Source of the DNA: Nannocystis sp. SCPEA4
GTDB lineage: Bacteria; Myxococcota_A; Polyangia; Nannocystales; Nannocystaceae
Direction: 5' to 3'
Assembly (NCBI RefSeq): GCF_026626685.1
Contig: NZ_JAPNJX010000001.1
Location: 268,752 to 332,751, forward strand
Length of the DNA stretch: 64,000 bases
The translations under genes and the position numbers were made by a program. The number at the start of each line of letters is the position of its first letter. Position 1 is the stretch's first letter. The notes under the pieces were generated by a model. That model ran no database searches and was not told where the DNA came from. It saw only the letters and a list, made by a program, of their open reading frames with translations. Shown one piece after another: positions 10,932 to 27,109 of this stretch.

Positions 10932-12566
10932 GTGCGCCGCGATCTTCGTCCTGTCCTGTCCCTCGCCGTCGCGTTCCTCGGCGCCGCCGTATCGCCTGCG
11001 GCCGCCGCCCAGAGCCCGTCCGCGCCGCCGACCACCTCGCAGCCGACCGCCTCGACGCCGCCGGTCACCCCGGCACCGACCGAAGCTGTCCCTGCGGACA
11101 GCCCGACGGAGGTCGCCACCGAGCCGGAGCCCGCGCCCGCCGAGGCCACCCCGCGCGAGGAGCCTGCCCCCGCGCCCGTGCCCGAGCCAGCCGTCAAGCC
11201 GGAGAAGAAGCCGGCCGCCAAGGGCCCGCACCCGCACGATCCCAACAGCCCCCCGGGCCTCGCCGACGGCTTCCACTTCGGCTCCTACGGCCGCGTCATC
11301 GCCGGCGGTGATGCGGCAGGTCGGGCCGGGCGCAACGGCGACATCGTCGCCCGCGGGTCACGGCTCGACGAGGCCAACTACGCCGAGCTCGAGCTGCGCC
11401 GCGAGGACTACTGGAAGTCGACCGGCGCCTACACGCGGATCGTCGCCACCACCGCCTTCGCCAACCCGATCTTCCACTACAACGGCCAGTTCGCCGCCTC
11501 GCTGGCGATCCGCAACCTCTACCTCGAGGTCCGCAATGCCGGCGTCAAGGGCCTGTCCTTTTGGGCAGGTTCACGCATGTACCGCGGCGACGACATCTAC
11601 CTGCTCGACTTCTGGCCGCTCGACAACCTCAACACCATCGGCGGCGGCGTCGGCTACACCTTCAAGACCGGCACCGAGCTCAAGTTCCACGCCGGCCTCA
11701 ATCAGCCGACCGATCCGTACTATCGCCAGACCATCCTGCGCCCGCCCACCTACAATCAATTCGGGCAGGCCGAGGTCGCGATCCTCGATCGCCAGAAGCT
11801 GGTCAGCAGCGTCAAGCTCAGCCACGTCTGGCCGGTCGGCGAGAGCGGCGGCATCAAGGGCATCCTCTACGGCGAGCTGCACTACGTGCCCGAGGGCCAG
11901 CGCGAGGTCGAGAGCAAGGTCTACGAGCAGGTCCCCAAGGACAAGGGCTTCGTCGGCGGCGCCCAGGTCGGCGCCTTCACCGGCAAGCGCAGCACCTACG
12001 TCAACCTCACCGCGCGCTTCGCCTCCGGCCTGGCCGCCTATGGCGAGCTCAATGCACCCCGGCAGCTGCGGCCCGATCGCCTGACCACCGGCGCCTACGA
12101 ATTGCTCGTCACCCTCAGCGGCAACTGGGAGCGCGGCCCGTTCGGCCTGCTCATGGGCTCGTATTATCGCCAGTTCCGCAACGCCAGCCGCTCGCTCGAC
12201 TGGGACGACCTCAACGAGGGCATCGTCATCGCCCGCCCGCAGGTGTGGTTCGCCAAGATCGCCGGCGTCGCGCTCGAGGCCTCGTATCAGGCCCAGCAGC
12301 GCGGCGTCGCCACCGAGGCCGAGCCCAACCTGTTCAAGCCCGTGTTCGCGCAGATGGGCCGCTTCGGCCTGATCCCCTTCATCACCCCGGGCGGCCCCGG
12401 CGCGTTCCAGCGCCCGCACATCCGCCTGATCTATCTCCTCACCGTGCGCGACGCCGGCGCGCGCTCGTTCTACCCGGCCGACGACAAGTTCGCCCGCCGC
12501 GGCGTCGATCACTTCATCGGCGTCGGGGCCGAATGGTGGTTCGGCTCGACCAGTTACTTCCGCTGA
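10932..12566 (+). CDS. Maltoporin (LamB)-like outer-membrane carbohydrate porin with a Pro/Ala/Thr-rich N-terminal linker
   Basis: Signal peptide. GFHFGSYGRV / SRLDEANYAELELRRE / SFWAGSRMYRGDDIYLLDFWPLDNLNTIGGGVG align with E. coli LamB DFHGYARSG / YRLGNECETYAELKLGQE / [30 protein letters not shown]. Confidence 0.7.
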   Translation: MRRDLRPVLSLAVAFLGAAVSPAAAAQSPSAPPTTSQPTASTPPVTPAPTEAVPADSPTEVATEPEPAPAEATPREEPAPAPVPEPAVKPEKKPAAKGPHPHDPNSPPGLADGFHFGSYGRVIAGGDAAGRAGRNGDIVARGSRLDEANYAELELRREDYWKSTGAYTRIVATTAFANPIFHYNGQFAASLAIRNLYLEVRNAGVKGLSFWAGSRMYRGDDIYLLDFWPLDNLNTIGGGVGYTFKTGTELKFHAGLNQPTDPYYRQTILRPPTYNQFGQAEVAILDRQKLVSSVKLSHVWPVGESGGIKGILYGELHYVPEGQREVESKVYEQVPKDKGFVGGAQVGAFTGKRSTYVNLTARFASGLAAYGELNAPRQLRPDRLTTGAYELLVTLSGNWERGPFGLLMGSYYRQFRNASRSLDWDDLNEGIVIARPQVWFAKIAGVALEASYQAQQRGVATEAEPNLFKPVFAQMGRFGLIPFITPGGPGAFQRPHIRLIYLLTVRDAGARSFYPADDKFARRGVDHFIGVGAEWWFGSTSYFR

Positions 12567-12594
12567 CGCGGACTGTCGCGAACGGAGGCACCCC

Positions 12595-14553
12595 ATGCAA
12601 TTCCGACTCCTCGCATTCGCCCCCGCGCTCCTCGCCGCCGCCGGCTGCCTGCACTTCGACACCCTCGAGGAGCCGGTCAAGGTCGCCACCCACGCCCAGG
12701 ACTGGCGCGAGGCCGTCATCTACCAGGTCCTCATCGACCGCTTCGACGACGGCGACGACGGCAACAACTATTTGCTCGACCGCGAGAACATGGCCCGCTA
12801 CCACGGCGGCGACTGGATCGGGCTCGAGAACCGGCTCGACTACATCCAGGAGCTCGGCGTCAACACTTTGTGGATCTCGCCGGTCATCAAGAACATCGAG
12901 ACCGACGCCAACGTCGACGGCTATCACGGCTACTGGGCCGTCGACCTGACCCAGCCGAACGCCCACTTCGGCAACCTCGACGATCTGCGCAGCCTCGTCC
13001 AGGCCGCGCACGAGCGCGACATGCTGGTCGTGATCGACATCGTCGCCAATCACATGGGTCAGCTGTTCTTCTACGACATGAACCTCAACGGCGTGCCCGA
13101 CATCCTGCTGCAGGGCACCGGCACCCGCCCGCAGGGCACCCCGGTGCCGCCCGGCTTCGATCAATCGGGCTTCACCCACATCACCGAGTACGACCCCGAC
13201 TTCAACCCCGGCGGCGTCCAGGCCTTCACCTCGCTGGGGCCCGCCGGCCCGGCGCCGATCATCTTCCCCTTCGATCCGAAGAGCGGCCACGTCACCCCGA
13301 TGCCGGCCATCTTCCAGAACCCCGACGTCTACAACCGCAAGGGTCGCACCTTCAATTACGACGACCCGCAGCAGCTCCTCACCGGTGATTTCCCCGGCGG
13401 CCTGAAGGACGTCAACACCACCCGCTGCGACGTCAAGCAGGCGTTCGTCGACTCGTACGCGCGGTGGATCGAGCTGACCGACGCCGACGGCTTCCGCATC
13501 GACACCGTCAAGCACGTCGAGCGCGAGTTCTGGCGCTACTTCACCCAGCGCGTGCGCCAGCGGCTGGCGGCCCAGGGCAAGACGAAGTTCTTCATGTTCG
13601 GCGAGGCCTTCGACGGCCGCGACGAGCTGGTCGGCTCGTTCACCAAGAACGACCTCCCGAGCGACGAGGAGCTCGCGCGCGAGAACTCGTGCGACGACGG
13701 CCCCAAGCTCACCGGCGACCAGCTCGACAGCGCCTTCTACTTCCCGCAGCACTACCAGGTGTTCCGCGACGTGTTCCAGGACGCCGCCTCGACCGACCGG
13801 ATCGCCACCTTGTGGGCCAACAAGACCGTCAATTACGGCACCGTCGCCCCGGCCGCCAGCGCCGGCGTCGCGCCCCACAAGGTCCTCGTCAACTTCATCG
13901 ACAACCACGACGTCGCCCGCTTCCTCTACTTCGCCCGCGCGCGCGTCGACGCCGACCCCGCGTTCGCCGGCAAGTCGCTGCGCGACAAGGAGCTGCGCCT
14001 GCGCGCCATGCTGCAGAACGCCCTCCTCATGCTCATGACCGCCGAGGGCATCCCGTGCCTCTATTACGGCACCGAGCTCGAGTACCGCGGCGGCAACGAC
14101 CCGAGCAACCGCGAAGACATGTGGCGGCCCTACCCCTATTTGGGCGACACCGCCGCCCCGCCCGCGTTCGACACCACCGGCCCGACCTTCGTCTTCACCA
14201 AGAAGCTGATCGAGATGCGCAAGAAGCTGGCCGCCCTGCGCCGCGGCGACACCACGGTCGTGTGGTCGACCTCGCGCACCGGCGACGAGTCCGACGCCGG
14301 GATCTTCGCGTTCGAGCGCGCCGGCGGCGACGCGGGCGGCAACTATGCGCTCGTCGTGTTCAACACCAACCAGAACCACGACAGCCGCACCGCCTTCGAC
14401 GGCACCACCATGACCACCTCCGCGCCCGCCGGCGCTGTCCTGGTCGACGTGCTGGGCGGCAACAAGCAATACACCGTCGGGGCAGGCGGTGCGCTCGACC
14501 TCACCCTCCCGCCGGTGTCCGGCATGCTCCTGGTCCCGCAGCAAGACGTCTGA
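12595..14553 (+). CDS. Alpha-amylase family (GH13) lipoprotein
   Basis: Lipoprotein signal MQFRLLAFAPALLAAAGC. GGDWIGL...LGVNTLWISPV...GYHGYWAVD...VVIDIVANHMG. Confidence 0.85.
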   Translation: MQFRLLAFAPALLAAAGCLHFDTLEEPVKVATHAQDWREAVIYQVLIDRFDDGDDGNNYLLDRENMARYHGGDWIGLENRLDYIQELGVNTLWISPVIKNIETDANVDGYHGYWAVDLTQPNAHFGNLDDLRSLVQAAHERDMLVVIDIVANHMGQLFFYDMNLNGVPDILLQGTGTRPQGTPVPPGFDQSGFTHITEYDPDFNPGGVQAFTSLGPAGPAPIIFPFDPKSGHVTPMPAIFQNPDVYNRKGRTFNYDDPQQLLTGDFPGGLKDVNTTRCDVKQAFVDSYARWIELTDADGFRIDTVKHVEREFWRYFTQRVRQRLAAQGKTKFFMFGEAFDGRDELVGSFTKNDLPSDEELARENSCDDGPKLTGDQLDSAFYFPQHYQVFRDVFQDAASTDRIATLWANKTVNYGTVAPAASAGVAPHKVLVNFIDNHDVARFLYFARARVDADPAFAGKSLRDKELRLRAMLQNALLMLMTAEGIPCLYYGTELEYRGGNDPSNREDMWRPYPYLGDTAAPPAFDTTGPTFVFTKKLIEMRKKLAALRRGDTTVVWSTSRTGDESDAGIFAFERAGGDAGGNYALVVFNTNQNHDSRTAFDGTTMTTSAPAGAVLVDVLGGNKQYTVGAGGALDLTLPPVSGMLLVPQQDV

Positions 14554-14559
14554 CGATTC

Positions 14560-15633
<1,074 letters not shown>

Positions 15634-15677
15634 GCATGTTTTCAAGGGCCTGTCGATACGCGCATGTCCGTCCGGAC

Positions 15678-17873
15678 ATGCGCCAACGAACAGGCTCTCT
15701 CGGACATGTCCTCTGCGCCGCGTTCGCGCTGCTGGCCGCCCTCGCCCCCGCCCTCGCCCGGGCCGACGACCTGCGCCTGTGGCACGCCTACCGCGACGCC
15801 GAGGCCGCCGCCCTGGTCGAGGTCGTCGAGCGCTTCAGCGCGGCGACCGGCCACCGCGTCGAGCTGCTGGCCGTCGCCCACGAGAGCTTCGCCAGCAAGC
15901 TGGCGGCGACCATCCCGCGCGGCCAGGGCCCCGACGTCTTCATCGACTCGCACGAGCGCCTCGGCGACTACCGCCAGCGCGCCCTCGTCGGCCCGGCTAC
16001 TGCGGCGCTCGACGCAGCCGACGTCTACTCGGCGCAGTCGCTGGCGGCGGTCACCCAGGACGGCGTCGTCTGGGGCGTGCCGCTGAGCGCCAAGTCGGTC
16101 GCGCTGTTCGTCAACGCCGGTCTCGTCGGACATGTCCCGAAGACCCTGGAGGAGATCGCCGCGCTGTCGCTGCCCACCGGCGTCTACCCGCTCGCCTACG
16201 AGGCCCAGAGCGCCTACGGCCACATGCCGCTGCTGGCGGCCTTCGGCGGGCGCATGCTCGCCGAGGACGCGTCCTTCGGCTTCGTCGGGCCGGCTGCCGA
16301 GCGCTCGCTGGCGTTCGCGCGCGAGCTCGCCGAGCGCGGCGCCGTCCCGCGCGACGCCGACGGGGCGCTCGTCGCCGACCTGTTCCGCAGCGGCCGAGCG
16401 GCCTTCGCCATCAGCGGCCCTTGGCTGGTCGGCGATCTCGCGCAGGTGGGCTTCGCCTGGCGCGTCGTCCCGCTGCCCATCGTCGCCGAGACCGGCCTGC
16501 CGATGCGCCCGCCGCTGACCGTCGAGGCCGCCATGCTGTCGCCGCAGGGCGCCGCGAAGCATGCCGCGCTGGCCCTCGCCCGCGCCCTGGGCAGCGCCGA
16601 CGCGGCCGAGCTGCGCCAGCGCCAGGCCGGCACCCTGTCCGTGAGGACAGACGTACCTGTCCCCGAGGACAACCCCGTCCTCGCCGGCTTCCGCGCCCAG
16701 GCCGAGCTCGCCGAGCCGATGTCGGCCGACCCGGCGATGCGCTCGACCTGGGAGCCGGCCTTCCGCGCGATCCGCAAGGTCCTGCGCGGCCAGGCCGACC
16801 CCGCCGAGGCCCTCGCCGAGGCCGCGCACCGCTTCGCCGACGTCCGCCGCCCGCCGCCGGCAGCCGCCTCGCCGACCCCCGCGCTCCTGTTGCTCGGCCT
16901 CGGCCTCCTGCTCGTCGCGTTCCACCTGGTCCGCCGCGCCCGCGACCCCGACGCGCGCCAGGCCCTGCGCCGCTCGCTGCCCGCCTACCGCTACGTCGCC
17001 CACAGCGTCGTCGTCGTCGGCCTGCTGGTGTTCGTCCCGCTGATCGTCGGCGCCGCCACCTCGCTGTTCGCCGGCCGTCCCGGCGAGGGCTACTACGTCG
17101 GCCTCGCCAACTTCTTCGAGATCCTCACCGCCCGCGGCGGCCCCTTGCTCGCCACCGGCTCGTTCTGGTTCGTCCTCCTCGTCACCTTCCTGTGGACGGC
17201 CGTCAACGTCGTCCTCCATCTCGGCATCGGCCTCGCGCTCGGCCTCGTGCTGTCGCGCCCGACCCTGCGCCTGCGCGCGCTCTACCGCGTGCTCCTGATC
17301 ATCCCCTGGGCCGTCCCCAGCTACGTCACCGCCCTGGCGTGGAAGGGCATGTTCCACCAGCAGTTCGGCGCCGTCACCGGCCTGATTCACGCCGTCAACG
17401 ACGTGTTCGGCACCAGCGTCGAGCCGATCGCCTGGTTCTCGCGCTTCGCAACCGCCTTCGCCGCCAACGTCGCCACCAACGTGTGGCTCGGCTTCCCCTT
17501 CATGATGGTCGTCACCCTCGGCGCGCTCACGGCCGTGCCCGCCGACGTGCTCGAGGCCGCCGAGGTCGACGGCGCCTCGCGCTGGCAACGCCTCACCCGC
17601 GTCACCTTGCCGGTGATCCGCCCCGCCCTCGCCCCGGCCGTCACCCTCGGCGCGATCTGGACCTTCAACATGTTCAACGTCGTGTTCCTCGTCTCGGGCG
17701 GCGACCCCGACGGCGCGACCGACATCCTCGTCAGCGAGGCCTACCGCTGGGCCTTCACCCGCGAGGCCCAGTACGGCTACGCCGCCGCCTACGCCGTCCT
17801 GATCTTCCTGCTCCTGCTCGTCACCACCCGCCTGCCGGCCTGGTTGGCCCGCCGCTCGGAGGCCGCGCGATGA
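15678..17873 (+). CDS. Fused maltose/maltodextrin-binding protein (MalE-like) and permease (MalF-like), a single ~731-aa polypeptide
   Basis: Signal peptide MRQRTGSLGHVLCAAFALLAALAPALARA. The MalE C-terminal region ...MSADPAMRSTWEPAFRAIRKVLRGQADPAEALAEAAHRFA aligns with E. coli MalE ...[31 protein letters not shown]. It continues without a stop into TM helices and the EAA-loop permease region (VLEAAEVDGASRWQRLTRVTLPVIRP). Confidence 0.7.
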   Translation: MRQRTGSLGHVLCAAFALLAALAPALARADDLRLWHAYRDAEAAALVEVVERFSAATGHRVELLAVAHESFASKLAATIPRGQGPDVFIDSHERLGDYRQRALVGPATAALDAADVYSAQSLAAVTQDGVVWGVPLSAKSVALFVNAGLVGHVPKTLEEIAALSLPTGVYPLAYEAQSAYGHMPLLAAFGGRMLAEDASFGFVGPAAERSLAFARELAERGAVPRDADGALVADLFRSGRAAFAISGPWLVGDLAQVGFAWRVVPLPIVAETGLPMRPPLTVEAAMLSPQGAAKHAALALARALGSADAAELRQRQAGTLSVRTDVPVPEDNPVLAGFRAQAELAEPMSADPAMRSTWEPAFRAIRKVLRGQADPAEALAEAAHRFADVRRPPPAAASPTPALLLLGLGLLLVAFHLVRRARDPDARQALRRSLPAYRYVAHSVVVVGLLVFVPLIVGAATSLFAGRPGEGYYVGLANFFEILTARGGPLLATGSFWFVLLVTFLWTAVNVVLHLGIGLALGLVLSRPTLRLRALYRVLLIIPWAVPSYVTALAWKGMFHQQFGAVTGLIHAVNDVFGTSVEPIAWFSRFATAFAANVATNVWLGFPFMMVVTLGALTAVPADVLEAAEVDGASRWQRLTRVTLPVIRPALAPAVTLGAIWTFNMFNVVFLVSGGDPDGATDILVSEAYRWAFTREAQYGYAAAYAVLIFLLLLVTTRLPAWLARRSEAAR

Positions 17874-17997
17874 TCCCCCGCGAGCACCCTGCCACGAGGC
17901 TCTTCGAGCCTGCCCCTACGGCCATGTCCTCAGGGTCATGCCTCTCACGACATGCCCTGACGACCATCCCACCCCCCCTCACCGTCGAGGTCCGCCC

Positions 17998-18876
17998 ATG
18001 AGCGCCTCCGGTCAGGGCCGCCGGGTCAGCCTCGCCGAGTCGATCGGCGCCCACCTGCTGCTGATCGTCGCCGTCGCGTTCGCCCTCTACCCTGTCCTTT
18101 GGGTCATCTCGCTCGCGTTCTCCGGCGCCGTCGAGCCGACCGCGCGGGTGATCCCGGTCCCGATCGAGCCGACCCTCGAGCACCTGCGCGGCGTCGCCTT
18201 CTCGACCCTCGAGGTGCCCGGCGGCCCCGATCGGTGGTTGTTCGGCCTGCAGCTCGCCAACTCGATCGTCATCAGCCTGGCGACCGCGCTGGTCGGCGTC
18301 ATCATCGCCGTGCCGACCGCCTACGCCCTGGCCCGCTTCGAGTTCGTCGGCAAGGACTCGGGCGTGCGCGCGCTGCTGGCCACGCAGATGTTCCCCGCGG
18401 TCGCCAGCGCGATCCCCCTCTACATCATCCTCGACGGCCTCGGCCTGCTCGGCACCCGCTCGGGCCTGGTCCTCTGCTACGCCACCACCGCCGTCCCGTT
18501 CGCCATCTTCCAGCTGCGCGGCGCCTTCGAGACCATCCCGCGCGACCTCGAGGAGGCCGCGATGGTCGACGGTGCGACCCGCTTCGAGGCCTTCCTCAAG
18601 GTCGTCCTGCCCGCCGCGCGCCCCGCCATCGCCGTCACCGCGCTGTTCGCCTTCATGAGCGCCTACAACGAGTTCGTGCTGGCCCACACCATGCTCGGGC
18701 GCGAGGAGATGTACACCGTCCCGGTGGTGCTGCAGCGCTACATCTCCGAGTTCAGCGCCGACTGGCCCAAGTTCGCCGCCGGCTCGCTGATCGTCTCGAT
18801 CCCGGTGATGATCCTCTTCTACATCGCCCAGCGCCACCTCATCGCCGGCCTCACCGCCGGCGGCGTCAAGGGCTGA
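17998..18876 (+). CDS. malG: ABC sugar permease, MalG-like
   Basis: Six TM segments. EAA motif LEEAAMVDGATRFEAFLKVVLPAARPA. The upstream 60 nt of the ORF (from 17938) overlaps a palindromic-motif cluster, so the later Met was chosen. Confidence 0.85.
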   Translation: MSASGQGRRVSLAESIGAHLLLIVAVAFALYPVLWVISLAFSGAVEPTARVIPVPIEPTLEHLRGVAFSTLEVPGGPDRWLFGLQLANSIVISLATALVGVIIAVPTAYALARFEFVGKDSGVRALLATQMFPAVASAIPLYIILDGLGLLGTRSGLVLCYATTAVPFAIFQLRGAFETIPRDLEEAAMVDGATRFEAFLKVVLPAARPAIAVTALFAFMSAYNEFVLAHTMLGREEMYTVPVVLQRYISEFSADWPKFAAGSLIVSIPVMILFYIAQRHLIAGLTAGGVKG

Positions 18877-18879
18877 CGG

Positions 18880-20960
18880 GCGAGCGGCCGGGCGCGAGTA
18901 CATCGTTCCGAACATTTGGCCTGCAAACCCGTTCAGGACGCAAGAGTGCGGGATAACTGCGTTGACAAGCGGGACAGACTCGCTCTAACTCAGGACGATC
19001 GCTCGCCTCCAAAGATCGGCTCCCTCGACAAAGAAGACCTCGCAGACACGTGCGAAGAAGGTATCTGAGAAATCTTCCCGGAAGGTGCTTGACCAATCTC
19101 GGCCCTCTGCCGCCCCCACGTATCATGCAGCCTTCGATGCTCGGAATGATCTTGCCATTCACACTCACAATGCCCGCCTCCTCTTCGCATTGGAAATCCG
19201 ATTCGGGATCGACGACATTCATTCCGCAGCCATCAATTCGCTGACAGATGGTCCGGACGACAAGAAGTGCGACTTAATTCACATTGACCGCGAACAGGGC
19301 TTTGCCGTAATCGCGCAGGCACACGAAAGAAAGAAGGGGAGAGCGGCAGGCTCGGCGAACAAAGCCAGCGACCTCAACACTGCGATTTCGTGGGCCCTCG
19401 GCGAAGAGTTAGATACCCTCCCCAAGCAGATCAAGGAAGCTGCACGTGAACTTCGTGACGCCATCAACGACCAGAGCATCACGCGACTACACGTATGGTT
19501 CGTTCATGGAGCCGCAGAGTCTTCAAATGTACGAGATGAGTTGCGCGCGGTCGAGCGGAATCTGAAACGCCTTATCAGAGATCACAACTGGGCAAAGCTC
19601 GAGACTGAAGTAACAGAAGTTGGGAGCAAGACCCTTGAGGAATGGTACTCAGCGCTGACATCTACAATCCAGGTCGGAGATAAGTTTGAGGTCAAAGTTC
19701 CCGGCGGCTATGTCATCAAAGACGCCGACAATGAATGGGAGGCCGCCGTTACGTCTGTTCCGCTATCTTGGATTCGGGAGGTTTTCCGGCGTCATCGAAG
19801 CAAGTTGTTCTCGGCAAACATTCGTGGATACTTGGGCGTTCGAGACACAGACGAGAACATCAACAATGGGATCAAGAGCACAGCAGTACGTGATCCTTCG
19901 AAGTTCTGGGCCTACAACAACGGCCTAACAGCGCTGGTCCACCGGTTCGAGTTTGATCCTGACTCCCCCTCAAAGCTACTCGTACTCCACGGTTTATCGG
20001 TAGTCAATGGCGCACAGACGACTGGCGCAATTGGCAACATTCCGGACGACATCAGCCCGGACGCCATGGTATCCATTCGCTTTGTCCGCACGACGGACAC
20101 CAGCATCGTACACAACATCATTCGGTACAACAACAGCCAGAACAGAGTTAACGCGTCAGATTTCCGCAGCAACGATAAAATCCAGCGCAGACTGCGGGAT
20201 CAGTTTAAGAGTCTGGATCCAGACATTGTATACCCCGGTGGGCGCCGCGGAGGGGAGTCTGACGCGATGGCTCGCTCCAAGAAGGATTATCTAATTCCCT
20301 CCGATTCCGCTGCACAAGCATTGGCGGCATTTCATCAAGAGCCAGGTTTGGCGTATTTACAGAAAGGACAGATCTGGGAAGATAACGAAACCTATCATAG
20401 ATTCTTCAATGACAAGACGACAGCATCGCACATTGTCTTCGTATTCTCGCTACTGCGTGCGGTCGAGAAAGCAAAATCAGAACTGCGCGAAAGAGCACAT
20501 AGAAACGAGATGACAGAGATCAATGAACGCGCGTACAATTTCTTCCTGGGCCGCGGTGCAACATATTTGCTGATAGCGGCCATCGGAAAGTGCCTGGAGA
20601 CGTTTGCGAAGAAAAGAATCCCAGAAACATTCAGAGTCTCATTTGGGAACGCGCGGTATCAAAGCGCCGTATCCTTCTGGAATCCAATCGTAGAGATTAG
20701 CCTTGCGGGGTGTGGCGTTCTCCAGCCTGCTGTCGATGCCAGACTGAAAGACAGTGCTGTGAAGGATGCATTGGGAAAGTTTCAGCAATTGATCGAGATG
20801 ACCAAACAGGCGAACATTTCGATCTACAATGAGTTCACTCGAAAGATCAAAATCGACTAGTGCGGCGGTCCCCCCGCAGATGCCTACTCCGCTCCCACGG
20901 CTGGGCTTGGCGCTCGTTTTCGCCCATGTGCAATTGGCGGATCTTCACACCAGCCGGTGA
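18880..20960. mobile_element. Low-GC (~50% vs ~72% host) island, ~2 kb, with no integrase or tRNA visible; carries a single AIPR gene
   Basis: Abrupt compositional shift visible in the raw sequence between malG and the S9 peptidase gene. Codon usage is AT-ending, unlike the flanks. Confidence 0.6.
19085..20860 (+). CDS. AIPR-family abortive-infection (phage resistance) protein
   Basis: 591 aa. Segments typical of AIPR (PF10592): RGYLGVRDTDENINNGIKSTAVRDPSKFWAYNNGLTALV, LSVVNGAQTTGAIG, IIRYNNSQNRVNASDFRSND. An N-terminal DGPDDKKCDLIHIDRE block is also present. Confidence 0.7.
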   Translation: MLDQSRPSAAPTYHAAFDARNDLAIHTHNARLLFALEIRFGIDDIHSAAINSLTDGPDDKKCDLIHIDREQGFAVIAQAHERKKGRAAGSANKASDLNTAISWALGEELDTLPKQIKEAARELRDAINDQSITRLHVWFVHGAAESSNVRDELRAVERNLKRLIRDHNWAKLETEVTEVGSKTLEEWYSALTSTIQVGDKFEVKVPGGYVIKDADNEWEAAVTSVPLSWIREVFRRHRSKLFSANIRGYLGVRDTDENINNGIKSTAVRDPSKFWAYNNGLTALVHRFEFDPDSPSKLLVLHGLSVVNGAQTTGAIGNIPDDISPDAMVSIRFVRTTDTSIVHNIIRYNNSQNRVNASDFRSNDKIQRRLRDQFKSLDPDIVYPGGRRGGESDAMARSKKDYLIPSDSAAQALAAFHQEPGLAYLQKGQIWEDNETYHRFFNDKTTASHIVFVFSLLRAVEKAKSELRERAHRNEMTEINERAYNFFLGRGATYLLIAAIGKCLETFAKKRIPETFRVSFGNARYQSAVSFWNPIVEISLAGCGVLQPAVDARLKDSAVKDALGKFQQLIEMTKQANISIYNEFTRKIKID

Positions 20961-21016
20961 ATCCAACCCGCGGTCAGCGCATTCCAAGCCTGGAACCCTC
21001 AGCCCTGGAGAATTTC

Positions 21017-23110
21017 ATGCGCCGTCCTCTGCTCCTGACCGTCGGCCTCGCCCTCGCCGGCTGTAGCGGCCCGTCCGCCGAACCCACCCCGGCCAAGCCC
21101 GCGGCCGCCAAGCCCACGCCGGCGGCCGCGCCGCCCGCCGCCGCCGCCGCGCCGGAGCTCATCCCGCGCGAGGCGCTGTTCGGCAACCCCGAGCGGGCCA
21201 ACGTGCAGATCAGCCCTGACGGCAAGTACCTCAGCTGGGTCGCGCCGGTCGACGGCGTGCTCAACGTCCACGTCGCGCCGGCGAACGAGCCCGCCAAGGC
21301 GCGCGCCGTCACCAGCGACAAGGCGCGAGGCATCGTCCAGTACTTCTGGACCTTCAAGCCCGACACCCTGCTGTACCTGCGCGACACCGGCGGCGACGAG
21401 GACTTCCACCTCCACGCCGTCGACCTCGCCAGCGGCCAGAGCCGCGACCTCTCGCCGTTCCCCAAGACCCGCGCGCAGGTCAACGGCGTCAGCCACCTGC
21501 ACCCCGAGTCCGTGCTCGTCAGGATGAACGACCGCGACCCTCAGTGGCACGACCTCTACCGCGTCGACCTCGCCACCGGCGAGCGGACCCTGCTCGCCCG
21601 CAACGACAGCAAGATCGCCGGCCACATCACCGACTCCGACTTCAAGCTGCGCCTCGCCACGCGCTCGCGCGAAGACGGCGGCATCGACGTCCTCCAGCCC
21701 GACGGCAAGAACGGCTGGAAGGAGCTCGAGCAGATCCCGTTCGACGACTCGCTGAGCACCGGCTACGGCGGCTTCACCACCGACGGCAAGACCGCCTACC
21801 TCCGTGAGTCGCGCGACCGCAACACCATCGCCCTCTACGCGGTCGACCTCGACACGCGCGAGCGGAAGCTCGTGTTCGAAGATCCGCGGGCCGACATCAG
21901 CGGCGTGCTGGCCGACCCGAAGACCGGCGTGGTGCAGGCGGTCGCCGCCAACTACTTGCGCGAGGAGTGGAAGGCGGTCGACCCCGGCATCGAAACCGAC
22001 CTCAAGAAGCTGCAGGCGCTCGGTCCCGGCGTGATCAGCGTCGGCGCGCGCACGCTCGACGACAAGACCTGGATCGTCACCTACTCGGCCGCCGAGGCGC
22101 CCGCGACCTACTACCGCTACGACCGCGGGGGCGAGCCGCAGAAGTTGTTCTCGGCCCGCCCCGCGCTCGACGGCAAGCCGCTGGTGAAGCAGTGGCCGCA
22201 GGAGATCCCGTCGCGCGACGGCCTCACGCTGGTCAGCTACCTCAGCCTCCCGCTGCAGGCCGACCCCGACCAGGACGGCAAGGCCAACACGGCCGTCCCG
22301 CTGGTGCTCTACGTCCACGGCGGCCCGTGGGGGCGCGACACCTACGGCTACGCCCCCTCGCCGCAGTGGCTGGCCAACCGCGGCTACGCGGTGCTGCAGG
22401 TCAACTATCGCGGCTCGACCGGCTTCGGCAAGGACTTCGTCAACAAGTCCAACTACGAGTGGTCGGGCAAGATGCACGACGACCTGCTCGACGCCGTCAA
22501 GTGGGCCGTCAAGCAGGGCGTCACCACCGAGGACCAGGTCGCGATCATGGGCGCCAGCTACGGCGGTTACGCCACCCTGGTCGGCCTGACATTCACGCCC
22601 GACACCTTCAAGTGCGGCGTCGACGTCGTCGGCCCGTCCAACCTCAACACCCTGTTCGCCACCTTCCCGGCCTACTGGGCCAGCTTCATGCAACAGTGGT
22701 ACGGCCGCGTCGGCGACTCGCGCACCGACGAGGGCAAGAAGCAGCTGCTCGAGCGCTCGCCGATCAGCCGCGTCGACCGCATCAAGAAGCCGCTGCTGAT
22801 CGCCCAGGGCGCCAACGACCCGCGCGTCAGCCAGGCCGAGAGCGACCAGATCGTCACCGCCATGCAGGCGAAGAAGATCCCGGTCACCTACGTGCTGTTC
22901 CCCGACGAGGGCCACGGCTTCGCCCGCCCGGAGAACAACAAGGCCTTCACCGCCGTCGCCGAGGGCTTCCTCGGCGCCTGCCTCGGCGGCCGCGTCGAGC
23001 CGATCGGCAAGGACTTCACCGGATCGAGCATCACCGTCCCCGCCGGCGCCGACGGCGTATCCGGCCTGACCGCGGCCCTGCAGTCGCACACGCAGCAGAT
23101 CAAGAAGTGA
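21017..23110 (+). CDS. S9-family serine peptidase (prolyl oligopeptidase / dipeptidyl-peptidase type) lipoprotein
   Basis: Signal MRRPLLLTVGLALAGC. Catalytic GASYGGY and C-terminal alpha/beta hydrolase domain (DEGHGF). The ORF 20957.. was trimmed to the signal-peptide Met. Confidence 0.85.
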   Translation: MRRPLLLTVGLALAGCSGPSAEPTPAKPAAAKPTPAAAPPAAAAAPELIPREALFGNPERANVQISPDGKYLSWVAPVDGVLNVHVAPANEPAKARAVTSDKARGIVQYFWTFKPDTLLYLRDTGGDEDFHLHAVDLASGQSRDLSPFPKTRAQVNGVSHLHPESVLVRMNDRDPQWHDLYRVDLATGERTLLARNDSKIAGHITDSDFKLRLATRSREDGGIDVLQPDGKNGWKELEQIPFDDSLSTGYGGFTTDGKTAYLRESRDRNTIALYAVDLDTRERKLVFEDPRADISGVLADPKTGVVQAVAANYLREEWKAVDPGIETDLKKLQALGPGVISVGARTLDDKTWIVTYSAAEAPATYYRYDRGGEPQKLFSARPALDGKPLVKQWPQEIPSRDGLTLVSYLSLPLQADPDQDGKANTAVPLVLYVHGGPWGRDTYGYAPSPQWLANRGYAVLQVNYRGSTGFGKDFVNKSNYEWSGKMHDDLLDAVKWAVKQGVTTEDQVAIMGASYGGYATLVGLTFTPDTFKCGVDVVGPSNLNTLFATFPAYWASFMQQWYGRVGDSRTDEGKKQLLERSPISRVDRIKKPLLIAQGANDPRVSQAESDQIVTAMQAKKIPVTYVLFPDEGHGFARPENNKAFTAVAEGFLGACLGGRVEPIGKDFTGSSITVPAGADGVSGLTAALQSHTQQIKK

Positions 23111-23462
23111 GCGCCTGCCGGGCACGCCCGGCCCGAGCGGGTCGCTGTCGCACACGCAGCGCCGCACGAGGTGAGCGCCTGCCGATCTTGCAACCGGCGC
23201 GACCCGGGCGGTCGAAGCTCGCGCCGGCGGCACGGCCCATCGCCTCGACCATCCTCGCGTCTCCCGAATTGTCGAGCCCGCGAGGCGGGATCGACCGCAG
23301 CGTGTGCAGGCGTTAAGCGCCTCCTTGCCGCGGAGCCCCCCGCGGTGAGTCGACCTCGAGCGACCTCTCGCCGCCTCCGCGCGGATGCGACCTGCCCCTT
23401 GAGCCAGGGCCATCCTCCGCTCCTGTCCCAAAGACCAGGCGGCGCACCGCTCGCGCACGGTT

Positions 23463-25730
23463 TTGCTATCGTCGCCCTCCGTGCCCGAGACGGAGCCCTC
23501 AGAGGCCGCGCGAGGTTCCCCCCCCGACCCCGCCGCGGCGGCAAGCAGTGCGACCTCGACGCGGCCGACCGGCGCACACCGGATCGCCAGCGCCGAGGCG
23601 ACCGGCTTCTTCGACGCGCTGCCGCACGGCACCGTGCTGATGCGGCTGTGGGCCCGCTTCGGCCTGCTCATGGGCCAGCAGCTGGCCCGGGTCGTGCGCG
23701 ACGACCACGTGTTCCTGATCGTCATGGCCGCGGTCGTCGGCACCACCAGCGGGATCGCGGCCGGCGCGTTGCTGGCGTGGATCGACTACGCCTTCCGCCT
23801 GTTCCCCCGGCCCGAGGAGAGCAGCGCGCTGGTCCGCTGGGCCGCGGTCATCGGCGTCCCGGTGCTGGGCGGGCTCGCGGCCGGCGGCCTGCACTTCGTG
23901 CTGCGGCGGATCATCCAGCAGCCGCTGGTCCAGAGCATCCCCGCCGTGATCGAGGCCATCGCCCGCAAGCAGGGCACCATCCGCGGGCGCCAGGCCGTCA
24001 TCGCCGGCGTCGGCACCGGCATCACGATCGGCAGCGGCGGCTCGTGCGGGCACGAGGGTCCGAGCGTCGCCATCGGCGCCGCCGTCGGCAGCGTGCTGGC
24101 CCGCTTCTTCGGCCTGCGCATGCGCTGGCACCTGGCGATGGTCGGGGCCGGCTGCGCCGGCGGCCTCGCGGCGGCCTTCAACGCCCCGCTGGCCGGCGTC
24201 GTGTTCACCGTCGAGATCGTGTTCGGCGGCGCCATCGGCGGCAACATCGGCACCATGTCGGTGTTCGTACCGCTGATCGTCGCCGCGGTCGCCGGCACCT
24301 TCACCTCGCACGCGATCCGCGGCGAGCACCTGACCTTTGCGACAGTCCAGCACGGCGACGCCATGCTCGCCGAGATGGGCCTGTTCGTCGCCCTCGCCGC
24401 GCTCGCCGGGGTGCTCGGCACGCTCATGGGCCGGGCCGTCATCGGCATGACGAAGTGGTTCCAGACGCTGAAGGCCCCCGTCCTGCTCAAGCCGGCGCTC
24501 GGGGCCCTGGGCGTCGGTGTGCTCGCCGCCGTCGTCTCCAACGACGTCCTCGGCGGCGGTCTGCCCACCATCAACGAGGCGCTGCAGGGGCATCTGGGCT
24601 GGCAGCTCGCGCTCGCGCTGCTCGGCCTCAAGATCGTCGCCACCGCGCTGACCGTCGGCAGCGGCGGCTTCGGCGGCGTGTTCACGCCCTCGCTGTACAT
24701 CGGCGCCTGCCTCGGCACCGTCGTCGGCGCGCTCGCCAACTTCGCGCTCGGCCCCGCCGCCGAGTCGACCGCCGCCTACGCGCTCGTCGGCATGGGGGCG
24801 ATCTTCGCCGCCACGATGCAGGCCCCGCTGACGCCGATCGTGATGATCTTCGAGCTCACCCGCGACTACAAGCTCATCCTCCCGCTGATGCTCGGCTGCA
24901 TCCTCGCGGTGTTCGTGGCCCGCCGCATGTCGCCGCGCAGCCTGTTCCAGGAGGTCCTCCACCAGCAGGGCGTGGTGCTCGGGCACGAGGCCGAGGTCGA
25001 GGTCATGAAGCGCGGCCACGTCGCCGACCTCATGCGCCCGCCCCCGCGCCCCCTGTCCGAAGGGACAGGCGCCGCCGAGGTCCGGCGCGTCGCCCTCGAC
25101 GAGGGCCGCTCGCCGTTCGTCGTCGACGACACCGGCGCCGTGGTCGGCTTCATCGACGCCGACCTGCTGGCCAAGCGCGTCCTCCACGGCGACGTCCCGG
25201 CCGACGCCGCCGCGCGCGACCTCATGTCCGACGTCCAGCTCGCCCTCCTCTACCCGACCGACACCCTCGCCGGCGCGATGCTGGCCTCGGCGCGGGCCGC
25301 TACCGAGGTCCTGCCGGTCGTCGACCACGAGCGCCGGCTCGTCGGCGTCATCCGCCGCGGCGACCTGCTCGCCCACTACAGCGACAAGGTGCTCGGCCAG
25401 CAGGAAGAGGCCGTGCACATGCACACCACCGGCGGCGCCGTCCACGGCCACGAGGTCGGCCTCGGCAAGGGCATGATCCTCGACCACATCGTCGTCGGCC
25501 GCCGCTGGGCCGGCCGCACCCTCGCCGACCTGGCCCTGCGCTCCCAGACCGGCTCCACCGTGGTCGAGTGGCTGCGCGGCGACGCCCCGCTGGCGCTCGA
25601 CCCCAACGCCCCGCTGCAGCACAACGACGTCCTGGCGATCGTCGGCACCCGCGAGCAGATCCTCGCCGCCCGGCGCATGGGCCCGACCCACCCCGGCGTG
25701 CCGGTCACGCCGCCGCCGATGCGATCTTGA
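23463..25730 (+). CDS. ClC-family chloride channel/transporter with C-terminal CBS pair and TrkA-C (RCK_C) domain
   Basis: GSGGSCGHEGPSV selectivity motif. GKEGP-like motifs. Two CBS domains, then a GMILDHIVVGRRWAGRTLADLALRSQTGSTVV RCK_C domain. The start may be an internal Met (~23640). Confidence 0.85.
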   Translation: MLSSPSVPETEPSEAARGSPPDPAAAASSATSTRPTGAHRIASAEATGFFDALPHGTVLMRLWARFGLLMGQQLARVVRDDHVFLIVMAAVVGTTSGIAAGALLAWIDYAFRLFPRPEESSALVRWAAVIGVPVLGGLAAGGLHFVLRRIIQQPLVQSIPAVIEAIARKQGTIRGRQAVIAGVGTGITIGSGGSCGHEGPSVAIGAAVGSVLARFFGLRMRWHLAMVGAGCAGGLAAAFNAPLAGVVFTVEIVFGGAIGGNIGTMSVFVPLIVAAVAGTFTSHAIRGEHLTFATVQHGDAMLAEMGLFVALAALAGVLGTLMGRAVIGMTKWFQTLKAPVLLKPALGALGVGVLAAVVSNDVLGGGLPTINEALQGHLGWQLALALLGLKIVATALTVGSGGFGGVFTPSLYIGACLGTVVGALANFALGPAAESTAAYALVGMGAIFAATMQAPLTPIVMIFELTRDYKLILPLMLGCILAVFVARRMSPRSLFQEVLHQQGVVLGHEAEVEVMKRGHVADLMRPPPRPLSEGTGAAEVRRVALDEGRSPFVVDDTGAVVGFIDADLLAKRVLHGDVPADAAARDLMSDVQLALLYPTDTLAGAMLASARAATEVLPVVDHERRLVGVIRRGDLLAHYSDKVLGQQEEAVHMHTTGGAVHGHEVGLGKGMILDHIVVGRRWAGRTLADLALRSQTGSTVVEWLRGDAPLALDPNAPLQHNDVLAIVGTREQILAARRMGPTHPGVPVTPPPMRS

Positions 25731-25912
25731 GGACATGTTCCTGAGGACATGGCTTTCGCAACAGTCTAGAAAGGGCATGTCCCAAGGACATCCCGCGACG
25801 GACGTCCTGCTCGACCGTGTCGTGACGCCCCACCACTGCCACCGCACCTCGACGGCCGGGCCGACGAAGCCAGGTCCCCGCCGAGCCGCTCGCTCCGCCA
25901 GCGTCGCTCGTC

Positions 25913-26428
25913 GTGACGCCTCACGACAAAACGCGCTACCCTCCGCCCGTGCCGCACGACGCCCAGGGCTGGATCGACGCGCTTCACCTCGTCCCGCACC
26001 CCGAGGGCGGGCACTACCGCGAGACCTACCGGGCCGGGCTCGCCGTCGAGCGCGACGGCCAGTGGCGCAGCGCCTCGACCGCGATCTACTACCTCCTGCG
26101 CCACGGCGAGCGCTCGCGGCTGCACCGGATCCGCAGCGACGAGCTGTGGCACTTCCACGCCGGCGATGGGCTCCAGGTCCACGTGTTCGACGCGCGGGGC
26201 CACGCCGTCATGCGGCCCGGCCTCGACCTCGCGGCCGGCGAGGCCCCCCAGCAGTGGGTGGCCGCCGGCGCGTGGTTCGGCGCCGAGGTCGAGCGGCCGG
26301 GCGGCTGGGCGCTCGTCGGCTGCACCGTCGCCCCGGGCTTCGAGTTCGCCGACCTCGAGTTCGCCGACCGCGACGCGCTCCTCCGCGCCCACCCGGCCCA
26401 CGCCGACGTCATCGCCCGCCTCGCCTGA
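25913..26428 (+). CDS. Cupin-fold protein, DUF985 (YML079w-like) family
   Basis: WIDALHLVPHPEGGHYRETYR at the N-terminus is the family signature. Confidence 0.7.
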   Translation: MTPHDKTRYPPPVPHDAQGWIDALHLVPHPEGGHYRETYRAGLAVERDGQWRSASTAIYYLLRHGERSRLHRIRSDELWHFHAGDGLQVHVFDARGHAVMRPGLDLAAGEAPQQWVAAGAWFGAEVERPGGWALVGCTVAPGFEFADLEFADRDALLRAHPAHADVIARLA

Positions 26429-26548
26429 AGCTCGCGGTCACGCGCGTGCGGCCCTGAATATTCCTCGGGAACCTCGCCGCGGCGGCGCTGTCTGCCGCTC
26501 CCGAGCGACGCGCGTGCGGCCGGTGGCGGCCGACATGTCCGTCGCGAC

Positions 26549-27109
26549 ATGTCCATTTCGCCAGCTGACTATTCGCTGCCATCGGAGGACCCCGCCGTGC
26601 CCACCCGCAAGCCGCCCGAGGAAGAGACCGTCCAAGCCGACCTCCTGCCCGTCATGAACATCATGTTCTTGCTGATCCCCGCCCTGCTGCTGGCGATGGA
26701 GTTCGCCAGCATGGCCCAGATCTCGGTCGCCGTCCCGCGCACCGTCAGCGAGGTGACCGCGCGGCCGAAGGATCCCAGCCAGCCCGAGCTCGGCTTCAAG
26801 GTGGCGATCGGCCGCGACGGCTTCCGCACCCGCTCCGGCGGCGCCGACGCCGGCCCCGGCACGATCCCCCTGAACGGCGGCGACTACGACTACGCCGCCC
26901 TCGCCGCCGCCGCCCGCGACCTCAAGCAGCTGTTCCCCACCGAGTCGACCGTCACGATCACCGCCGAGGGCGACGTGCCGATGGACGTCCTCGTCCGCAC
27001 CATCGACGTCCTCCGCGGCGACAGCTGCAAGCTCGGCGGCTGGGCCCGCGGCGAGCAGCCGGGCGACGGCTGCCTGTTCTGGACGCCCGTGATCGAGAGC
27101 GTCGGCTGA
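26549..27109 (+). CDS. ExbD/TolR-family biopolymer transport protein (solo, no ExbB/TolQ adjacent)
   Basis: Single N-terminal TM LPVMNIMFLLIPALLLAM followed by a periplasmic domain. The ATG lies inside a GACATGTCC motif, so the start is uncertain (alternative GTG ~26597). Confidence 0.65.
   Translation: MSISPADYSLPSEDPAVPTRKPPEEETVQADLLPVMNIMFLLIPALLLAMEFASMAQISVAVPRTVSEVTARPKDPSQPELGFKVAIGRDGFRTRSGGADAGPGTIPLNGGDYDYAALAAAARDLKQLFPTESTVTITAEGDVPMDVLVRTIDVLRGDSCKLGGWARGEQPGDGCLFWTPVIESVG

Follow-up and report, generated by a model that had tools for sequence, protein, structure and literature searches.

The window analyzed here, a 64-kb stretch of DNA from the myxobacterium Nannocystis sp. 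SCPEA4, carries an intact AIPR-family gene of 591 codons on the forward strand (19085..20860). The gene lies in a segment of 2021 bp (18891..20911), called the island below, between the genes of a MalG-like ABC transporter permease and an S9 peptidase. An earlier note on this DNA, made from the letters alone, had described a sharp low-GC block of about 2 kb in a myxobacterial chromosome, holding a single AIPR gene of recent origin; host, block and gene were all confirmed. Between about 18900 and 20950 the 200-nt windows have a GC content of 0.47-0.57, compared with 0.69-0.79 before this stretch and 0.66-0.79 after it, and the only two 1-kb bins of the window with a GC content below 0.65 are both at the island. 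The segment 18891..20911 has a GC content of 0.528 against a mean of 0.723 for the other 2-kb windows (standard deviation 0.023, minimum 0.669), that is, about 8.6 standard deviations below them, and it is the sole low-GC block in the 64 kb. The limits first proposed, 18880..20960, do enclose the block, but the comparison with Nannocystis radixulma described below places the island slightly inside them, at 18891..20911, and the low-GC block proper is 18911..20860. The GC content at third codon positions (GC3) is 0.591 in the AIPR open reading frame (ORF), compared with 0.955 in the MalG-like gene, 0.971 in the peptidase gene and a mean of 0.93 in 37 native-looking frames. The AT-ending codons that had been claimed for the gene were found only in part: the codons are clearly unlike those of the neighbors, but they are mixed, not mainly AT-ending.

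The AIPR gene is the one long ORF of the block and starts with a GTG codon. A search of its product against PF10592 (AIPR), which the earlier note had suggested, gave 126.9 bits against a gathering score of 25 (E = 1.7e-36, residues 242-504), far above the threshold, and the AbiU profile of PADLOC was matched in part (E = 1.8e-35). The AIPR core motifs NxRxYxG, WxYNNGxT, VNGxQT, YNNSQN and DFRSND are invariant columns in an alignment of 120 sequences that includes the window protein, which is a bona fide member of the AIPR family. The product is identical to the NCBI protein MCY1053678.1 / WP_267679956.1, which is encoded on a 1.8-Mb contig and annotated as 'AIPR family protein [Nannocystis sp. 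SCPEA4]'. Another RefSeq record, WP_276598626.1, has 351 amino acids (aa) and corresponds to 19805..20860 of the window; its start is an internal TTG at the very point where the Pfam model of AIPR sets in, and it leaves out the entire nuclease-fold domain described below. We considered whether the public annotation hides that domain, which is only half right, as the full record of 591 aa exists beside the shorter one.

The low-GC region of the island that precedes the gene (18911..19084, forward strand, GC content 0.55) presumably holds the promoter and leader of the AIPR gene itself. A promoter scan of 18911..19084 gave no site that passed the scan rules, and a weak promoter-like match (TTGACA-18-TAACTC) is present at 18962..18991. 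Directly upstream of the GTG, 32 codons are free of stops in the same frame (18989..19084) and would encode the peptide LRTIARLQRSAPSTKKTSQTRAKKVSEKSSRK, which is rich in K, R, S and T and resembles the basic N-terminal tails of the homologs P0001, P0003 and P0015; ATG, GTG and TTG are absent from this stretch. Possibly the gene has lost its original start, or else it uses a non-canonical one. On the other side, 51 bp with a GC content of 0.75 (20861..20911) separate the AIPR stop codon from the point where homology to N. radixulma resumes. Local alignments of these 51 bp to the spacers of the relatives score no better than shuffled sequences, and the alignment thus gave no support to the idea that they are native spacer.

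To find relatives of the locus, the peptidase was searched against one genome of each species, which returned six Nannocystis genomes, and the flanks were compared by blastn of 12001..27000 of the window against these six. The flanks are collinear in all of them, at 97% identity in N. radixulma and at 84-93% in N. pusilla, N. punicea, RBIL2, N. bainbridge and N. exedens. In each of the six the MalG-like permease gene adjoins the S9 peptidase gene and a counterpart of 18891..20911 is absent, which is the adjacency that the earlier note had proposed to look for. Homology to N. radixulma (locus L001) stops at window position 18890, equivalent to L001 7866, and resumes at 20912, equivalent to L001 7956; the same gap was found in the other five loci (L073, L002, L003, L004 and L052). 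The 2021 bp of the window occupy the place of 89 bp in N. radixulma. Because the gene is absent from a relative with 97% identity and has not been ameliorated in composition, the island is, as far as these genomes tell, a recently acquired and strain-specific islet of Nannocystis sp. SCPEA4, and the recent acquisition claimed earlier is borne out, neither of the two outcomes that the earlier note had named as refuting it having occurred. The other possibility is that the gene was ancestral in Nannocystis, an old resident lost from the relatives. Only seven genomes were compared, and the 51 bp at 20861..20911 resemble native DNA in their high GC content, which leaves this reading some room; but it requires six independent and precise deletions, each restoring the common spacer motif described below, in the face of a GC3 of 0.59 against 0.93 with no sign of amelioration and of a nearest homolog that is only 60% identical and lies on an unrelated contig. 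We regard an ancestral gene as extremely improbable.

The spacer between the MalG-like and peptidase genes of all six relatives contains a 19-nt motif, ACGAAACACAATGCACATA (at L001 7900-7925 and in the equivalent spacers of the other loci), while the remainder of the spacer has diverged. This motif was not found anywhere in the 64-kb window with up to three mismatches allowed. It may serve in the regulation of either the mal-like operon or the peptidase gene. Since the 89-bp spacer and its genus-wide motif are both gone, the event appears to have been an insertion with simultaneous deletion of the ancestral spacer, and by this comparison ACGAAACACAATGCACATA was lost from the window in the deletion that accompanied it. 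The insertion proposed in the earlier note therefore stands in that the island was gained, but it was a replacement of about 89 bp rather than a clean insertion. The window has kept intact the 105 bp closest to the start of the peptidase gene, a stretch conserved in the genus. No target-site duplication was found at the junctions. The left junction lies 10-14 bp past the stop codon of the MalG-like gene, inside a stem-loop of the N. radixulma empty site that looks like a terminator but is statistically unremarkable (z = -1.2), and neither junction folds better as DNA than shuffled sequences do.

In agreement with the earlier note, the surroundings offer no integrase, tRNA gene or obvious direct repeat. 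No tRNA gene was found anywhere in the 64-kb window, the island contains no integrase or other recombinase gene, and the flanks are collinear with the relatives without extra genes. The repeat search gave no convincing direct or inverted repeats bracketing the island, only chance pairs of low identity at the junctions, and no remnants of other foreign genes were seen within 7 kb on either side. An Rfam search of the island had no match. No attC-like imperfect inverted repeat was found 3' of the AIPR ORF, where the folding of the 51-bp flank was that of shuffled sequences (z = -0.04). The recombinase, tRNA or att site and flanking repeats by which an integrase-mediated island, a prophage or a transposon is recognized are all missing here, as is the attC-like repeat 3' of the ORF that marks an integron cassette.

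The replaced spacer, the lack of a duplication and the break beside a terminator-like stem together fit illegitimate recombination. A linear fragment of about 2 kb would have entered by illegitimate, non-site-specific recombination just past the stop codon of the MalG-like gene; its entry would have deleted about 89 bp of ancestral spacer and spared the proximal upstream region of the peptidase gene. Later spread among conspecific strains by homologous recombination of the flanks would be possible. A donor search in metagenomes gave nothing closer than 55% in the best segment. The nearest homolog, P0001, has 60% identity at the protein level and 64% at the DNA level, and in the Logan contigs the similarity is confined to the coding region.

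At least 2315 homologs are present in the protein database. The best 120 of them are full-length, with 576-619 aa, are 44-60% identical to the window protein and cover 96-99% of it, with the exception of P0002, which is the 351-aa record of this same gene. Named homologs come from Acidobacteriota, Bacillota, Cyanobacteria, Pseudomonadota, Nitrospirota, Methylomirabilota, Gemmatimonadota (Longimicrobiaceae) and Myxococcota (a Nannocystis metagenome-assembled genome, MAG). Eight homologous loci from different phyla were inspected, and in four the homolog stands alone between housekeeping genes: in Bryobacteraceae between the suf operon with Rrf2 and STAS with LpxD, in Azospirillum between AraC and an ABC transporter, in Microcoleus between ThrRS and DUF4058 with YbeY, and in the Nannocystis MAG between UbiB and a hypothetical gene. 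Defense-type neighbors were seen in Methylomirabilis (GmrSD_N, HigBA and DUF433/PIN) and in Moorella (Mrr_cat and an integrase fragment). In P2-like Klebsiella prophages the homolog lies between the gpA (replication endonuclease)/DinI genes and the portal gene, a position that corresponds to the tin/old cargo region of P2. The homolog of Klebsiella phage ST11-OXA245phi3.1 (L091 4995..6737) is 44.6% identical over 98% of the length; it is preceded by a hypothetical gene of 225 aa, and the homologs in such prophages are annotated variously as hypothetical, AIPR or 'Abi alpha-like'. Relatives are also carried by 41 IMG/VR contigs. No neighbor was common to the eight loci, so that the clade of AIPR proteins of about 585 aa lacks a conserved partner, and the view that partner genes are normally to be expected does not hold for this clade.

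In other high-GC hosts, too, members of the clade stand out as sharp islets of low GC content: 0.49 against 0.68 in Azospirillum (L088 6001..7776), 0.50 against 0.72/0.63 in the Nannocystis MAG (L083 7001..9640, including an adjacent low-GC ORF of 251 aa) and 0.54 against 0.72 for P0001 (L080 2412..4226). At most of the loci in this comparison the gene is poorer in GC than the host, which seems to be a trait of the family. A selfish nuclease gene that inserts itself, similar to a free-standing homing endonuclease or to an addiction module, could produce such a pattern, its solitary position reflecting its own mobility and not selection for phage defense. This is a single gene with a nuclease fold, found alone between housekeeping genes in several phyla with a GC content persistently under that of the host, and both mobile-element machinery and a target duplication are absent. 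On the other hand, near-identical copies in other genomes were not found (the best match has 60% identity), the window holds a single copy, and the unrelated loci share neither a flank nor a target sequence. A search for a hidden cassette or att site among 17 AIPR loci found shared flank sequence only between duplicate or closely related contigs. Homing requires a homologous recipient site, of which none is apparent, and members of the family occupy recognized prophage defense hotspots. A selfish gene of this kind is in our view highly improbable.

An AlphaFold2 model of the window protein, built from the alignment of 120 sequences, is confident throughout (mean predicted local distance difference test, pLDDT, 90.1; predicted template modeling score, pTM, 0.84). 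In this model the protein is composed of an N-terminal PD-(D/E)xK nuclease-fold domain of the FokI/Mrr type (about residues 20-190; 19142..19651), the AIPR core as defined by Pfam (residues 242-504; 19808..20596), with the motifs NxRxYxG, FWxYNNGxT, VNGAQTTG, YNNSQN, DFRSND and GGRRGG, and an all-helical C-terminal domain (about residues 405-591; 20297..20857), all on the forward strand. The nuclease fold was placed at the N-terminus because of the strand-helix pattern of residues 20-180 and the invariant residues there: D59, D63, Q78, K93, H141 and E152 are conserved in 120/120 sequences and K60 in 119/120. Pfam searches at E <= 10 with the first 240 aa and the last 185 aa returned only noise. 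With the full model as query, Foldseek found no PDB entry at E <= 0.001, and sequence and profile searches of the PDB found no solved relative of AIPR. AIPR proteins are said to have an N-terminal HEPN domain (PMC3506569). We rejected a HEPN domain with an Rx4-6H motif for the window protein, since the C-terminal helical domain has no conserved Rx4-6H.

The same alignment bears on the condition of the gene. The window protein retains 50/50 of the positions that are invariant among the 120 homologs, and it deviates at 13/145 of the positions that are at least 90% conserved, where the median is 3. P0001 has most of the 13 deviations as well, and P0015, which is similarly divergent, has some of them; this suggests a subclade of high-GC hosts rather than decay. 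A decaying or non-functional remnant, the last cargo gene of a deleted mobile element or defense island with a damaged 5' end, would account for the excess of deviations, for the K/R-rich extension that continues in frame upstream of the GTG like the tails of the homologs but without a canonical start codon, and for the RefSeq record that calls only 351 aa. Against a remnant stand the uninterrupted ORF of 591 codons with all 50 invariant residues, the sharing of most deviations with P0001 and of some with P0015, which makes them marks of a clade, the confident model, and the clean flanks over 7 kb on either side. We therefore consider a remnant unlikely.

Among the closest described systems is AbiU (AbiUi/AbiU1) of Lactococcus lactis (PDLC02357; Dai et al. 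2001), which is treated as a single-component system (PMC13064643). Both AbiU and the window protein are single chains of about 590 aa with no required partner, and both would have the same order of domains, beginning with an N-terminal domain that is similar to restriction endonucleases and contains a D-G-x-x-D-strand motif, followed by the AIPR core and ending in a helical C-terminus. An independent AlphaFold2 result for the Lactococcus AbiUi also resembles FokI (PMC13064643), and the restriction-endonuclease-like fold of AbiU is predicted for the window protein as well. As with AbiU, a single gene is involved: the island holds no other foreign gene, and the eight homologous loci have no conserved neighbor. 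The host of AbiU belongs to a different phylum. The PADLOC AbiU profile matches residues 112-475 of the window protein at profile positions 123-463 of 537 (121 bits, E = 1.8e-35); a Lactococcus plasmid protein reaches 590 bits and covers positions 1-532. The window protein is thus a distant relative of the tested AbiU with a shared architecture. Lactococcus AbiU delays phage transcription and lowers plating 10- to 100-fold, which is the sole phenotype on record for the superfamily (PMC13064643). The AIPR genes of the Klebsiella P2-like (Peduoviridae) prophages are of the same clade and are solitary defense-type cargo like the window gene; they ride an identifiable prophage, whereas the window copy has no mobile-element context.

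MzaE, of the five-gene MZA system (NF041935, PDLC02207), has the AIPR core in common with the window protein (E = 1e-16 to 3e-14, residues 204-370). We rejected an identification as MzaE, as the product scores 60.7 bits against an equivalog cut-off of 1050 and no mzaABCD genes are adjacent; our search of the literature on Mza/MzaE found only unrelated papers. Single-chain type IV restriction enzymes of the GmrSD, BrxU and SspE type combine a DUF262 sensor/NTPase with a C-terminal HNH/DUF1524 nuclease, whereas the nuclease domain of the window protein is N-terminal and of the PD-(D/E)xK type; the DGQQR motif of these enzymes is replaced by NGAQT, and a relation in fold did not reappear when the domain was taken on its own. 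In comparison with FokI/Mrr-type domains, the lysine of (D/E/Q)xK is replaced by Y/H80 and there is no family match at the level of sequence. The role of that lysine may be taken by the invariant K93 of the next helix.

AbiU1/AIPR has been linked to restriction-modification systems (PMC3506569, PMC2292703), and a link between AIPR and DndB is also found in the literature (PMC3506569, PMC8546572), consistent with the weak ParB-like matches that a structure search with the full-length model returned (PadC 5.6, BrxU 5.1, sulfiredoxin 5.0). The window protein could be a component of a DNA-modification or restriction pathway of the host that is encoded elsewhere, as a DndB-like regulator or an accessory of restriction-modification, and would then not be autonomous. 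No restriction-modification, dnd or mza genes adjoin it here or at most of the homologous loci examined, the MzaE score is far below its cut-off, and the ParB-like matches disappear when the AIPR half is modeled alone. A role as a pathway component is very unlikely in our judgment.

Taken as a whole, the locus is probably best explained by the recent gain, through illegitimate recombination, of a stand-alone anti-phage protein of the AIPR family. The anti-phage role is suggested by membership of the family and by its association with defense hotspots. The AIPR core and the C-terminal domain, in which invariant N, Q, R, T and S residues abound, could recognize a nucleic-acid cue specific to the phage; recognition would license the N-terminal nuclease to cut DNA, and phage transcription or replication would be blocked. 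Such a block would resemble the delayed phage transcription caused by Lactococcus AbiU. Several points weigh against this explanation. The recombination mechanism is inferred from the junctions alone, the nearest relative being only 60% identical. The GTG start directly abuts GGAAG with zero spacing. The putative active site departs from the canonical D...(D/E/Q)xK in that it reads D63...Q78-x-Y/H80 and has K93 on the helix that follows, so that nuclease activity is plausible but not assured from the model. Identity to the tested Lactococcus type of AbiU is 25% and limited to residues 241-443, and the effect of AbiU itself is modest, with an efficiency of plating of 0.1-0.01 (PMC13064643). We found no published validation of phage protection by any member of the clade of about 585 aa. 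An AIPR gene from the P4 hotspot of E. coli was cloned by Rousset et al. (pFR77), and it appears from their text not to be among their seven protective systems. A bolder form of the proposal is that this clade consists of autonomous single-gene sensor-nucleases, with the AIPR core, for which no structural relative has been solved, as a new sensor of nucleic acids or nucleotides. That such genes recur as lone, persistently low-GC genes among housekeeping genes of distant phyla, with no mobile-element machinery, could then point to an unrecognized route of single-gene transfer, the nuclease perhaps even aiding its own insertion; we think this proposal decidedly unlikely.

Both genes that flank the island are native, and the flanks named earlier as malG and a peptidase gene were largely confirmed. 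The left one (17938..18876, forward strand, PF00528) is 90-97% identical in nucleotide sequence to the six Nannocystis genomes and closes a sugar-ABC operon as its last gene. Its product is indeed an ABC permease, but it scores 177 bits with the MalG equivalog NF008231, under the cut-off of 261, and 'MalG-like' is therefore the safe name. Upstream of it, a single frame of 1469 aa (13464..17873, forward strand) contains both SBP_bac_8 (solute-binding protein) and BPD_transp_1 (permease) domains; rather than a true fusion, this probably reflects read-through of malE-like and malF-like genes in a high-GC frame with few stop codons. The right one (21017..23110, forward strand) encodes a lipoprotein of the S9 prolyl-oligopeptidase family (PF00326, E = 2e-45). 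Alignment with the relatives shows its start to be the conserved ATG at 21017 and not the GTG at 20957, and the lipoprotein-type signal MRRPLLLTVGLALAGC at its N-terminus is aligned in the relatives. Outside Nannocystis the nearest relatives of this peptidase are from Lysobacteraceae (Luteimonas, Pseudoxanthomonas and Stenotrophomonas), mostly at 65-75% amino-acid identity, with other myxobacteria more distant (Labilithrix 53%, a myxobacterial MAG 55%); such a distribution hints that the peptidase gene passed between phyla long ago.

For the genome of SCPEA4, the AIPR gene is an ordinary accessory gene of a common family, already labeled correctly by NCBI. The locus is nevertheless a clean natural example of a defense-type gene gained as a naked single-gene insertion, with an empty site in a relative of 97% identity and exact junctions. 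Defense systems are usually described as traveling on mobile elements (PMC10121019), and the islet, which has no mobile-element context, contrasts with that view. AIPR proteins are abundant, yet their core has neither a solved structural relative nor a mechanistic explanation. The predicted domain map, together with the invariant residues D59, D63, Q78 and K93, offers concrete targets for mutagenesis in this family.

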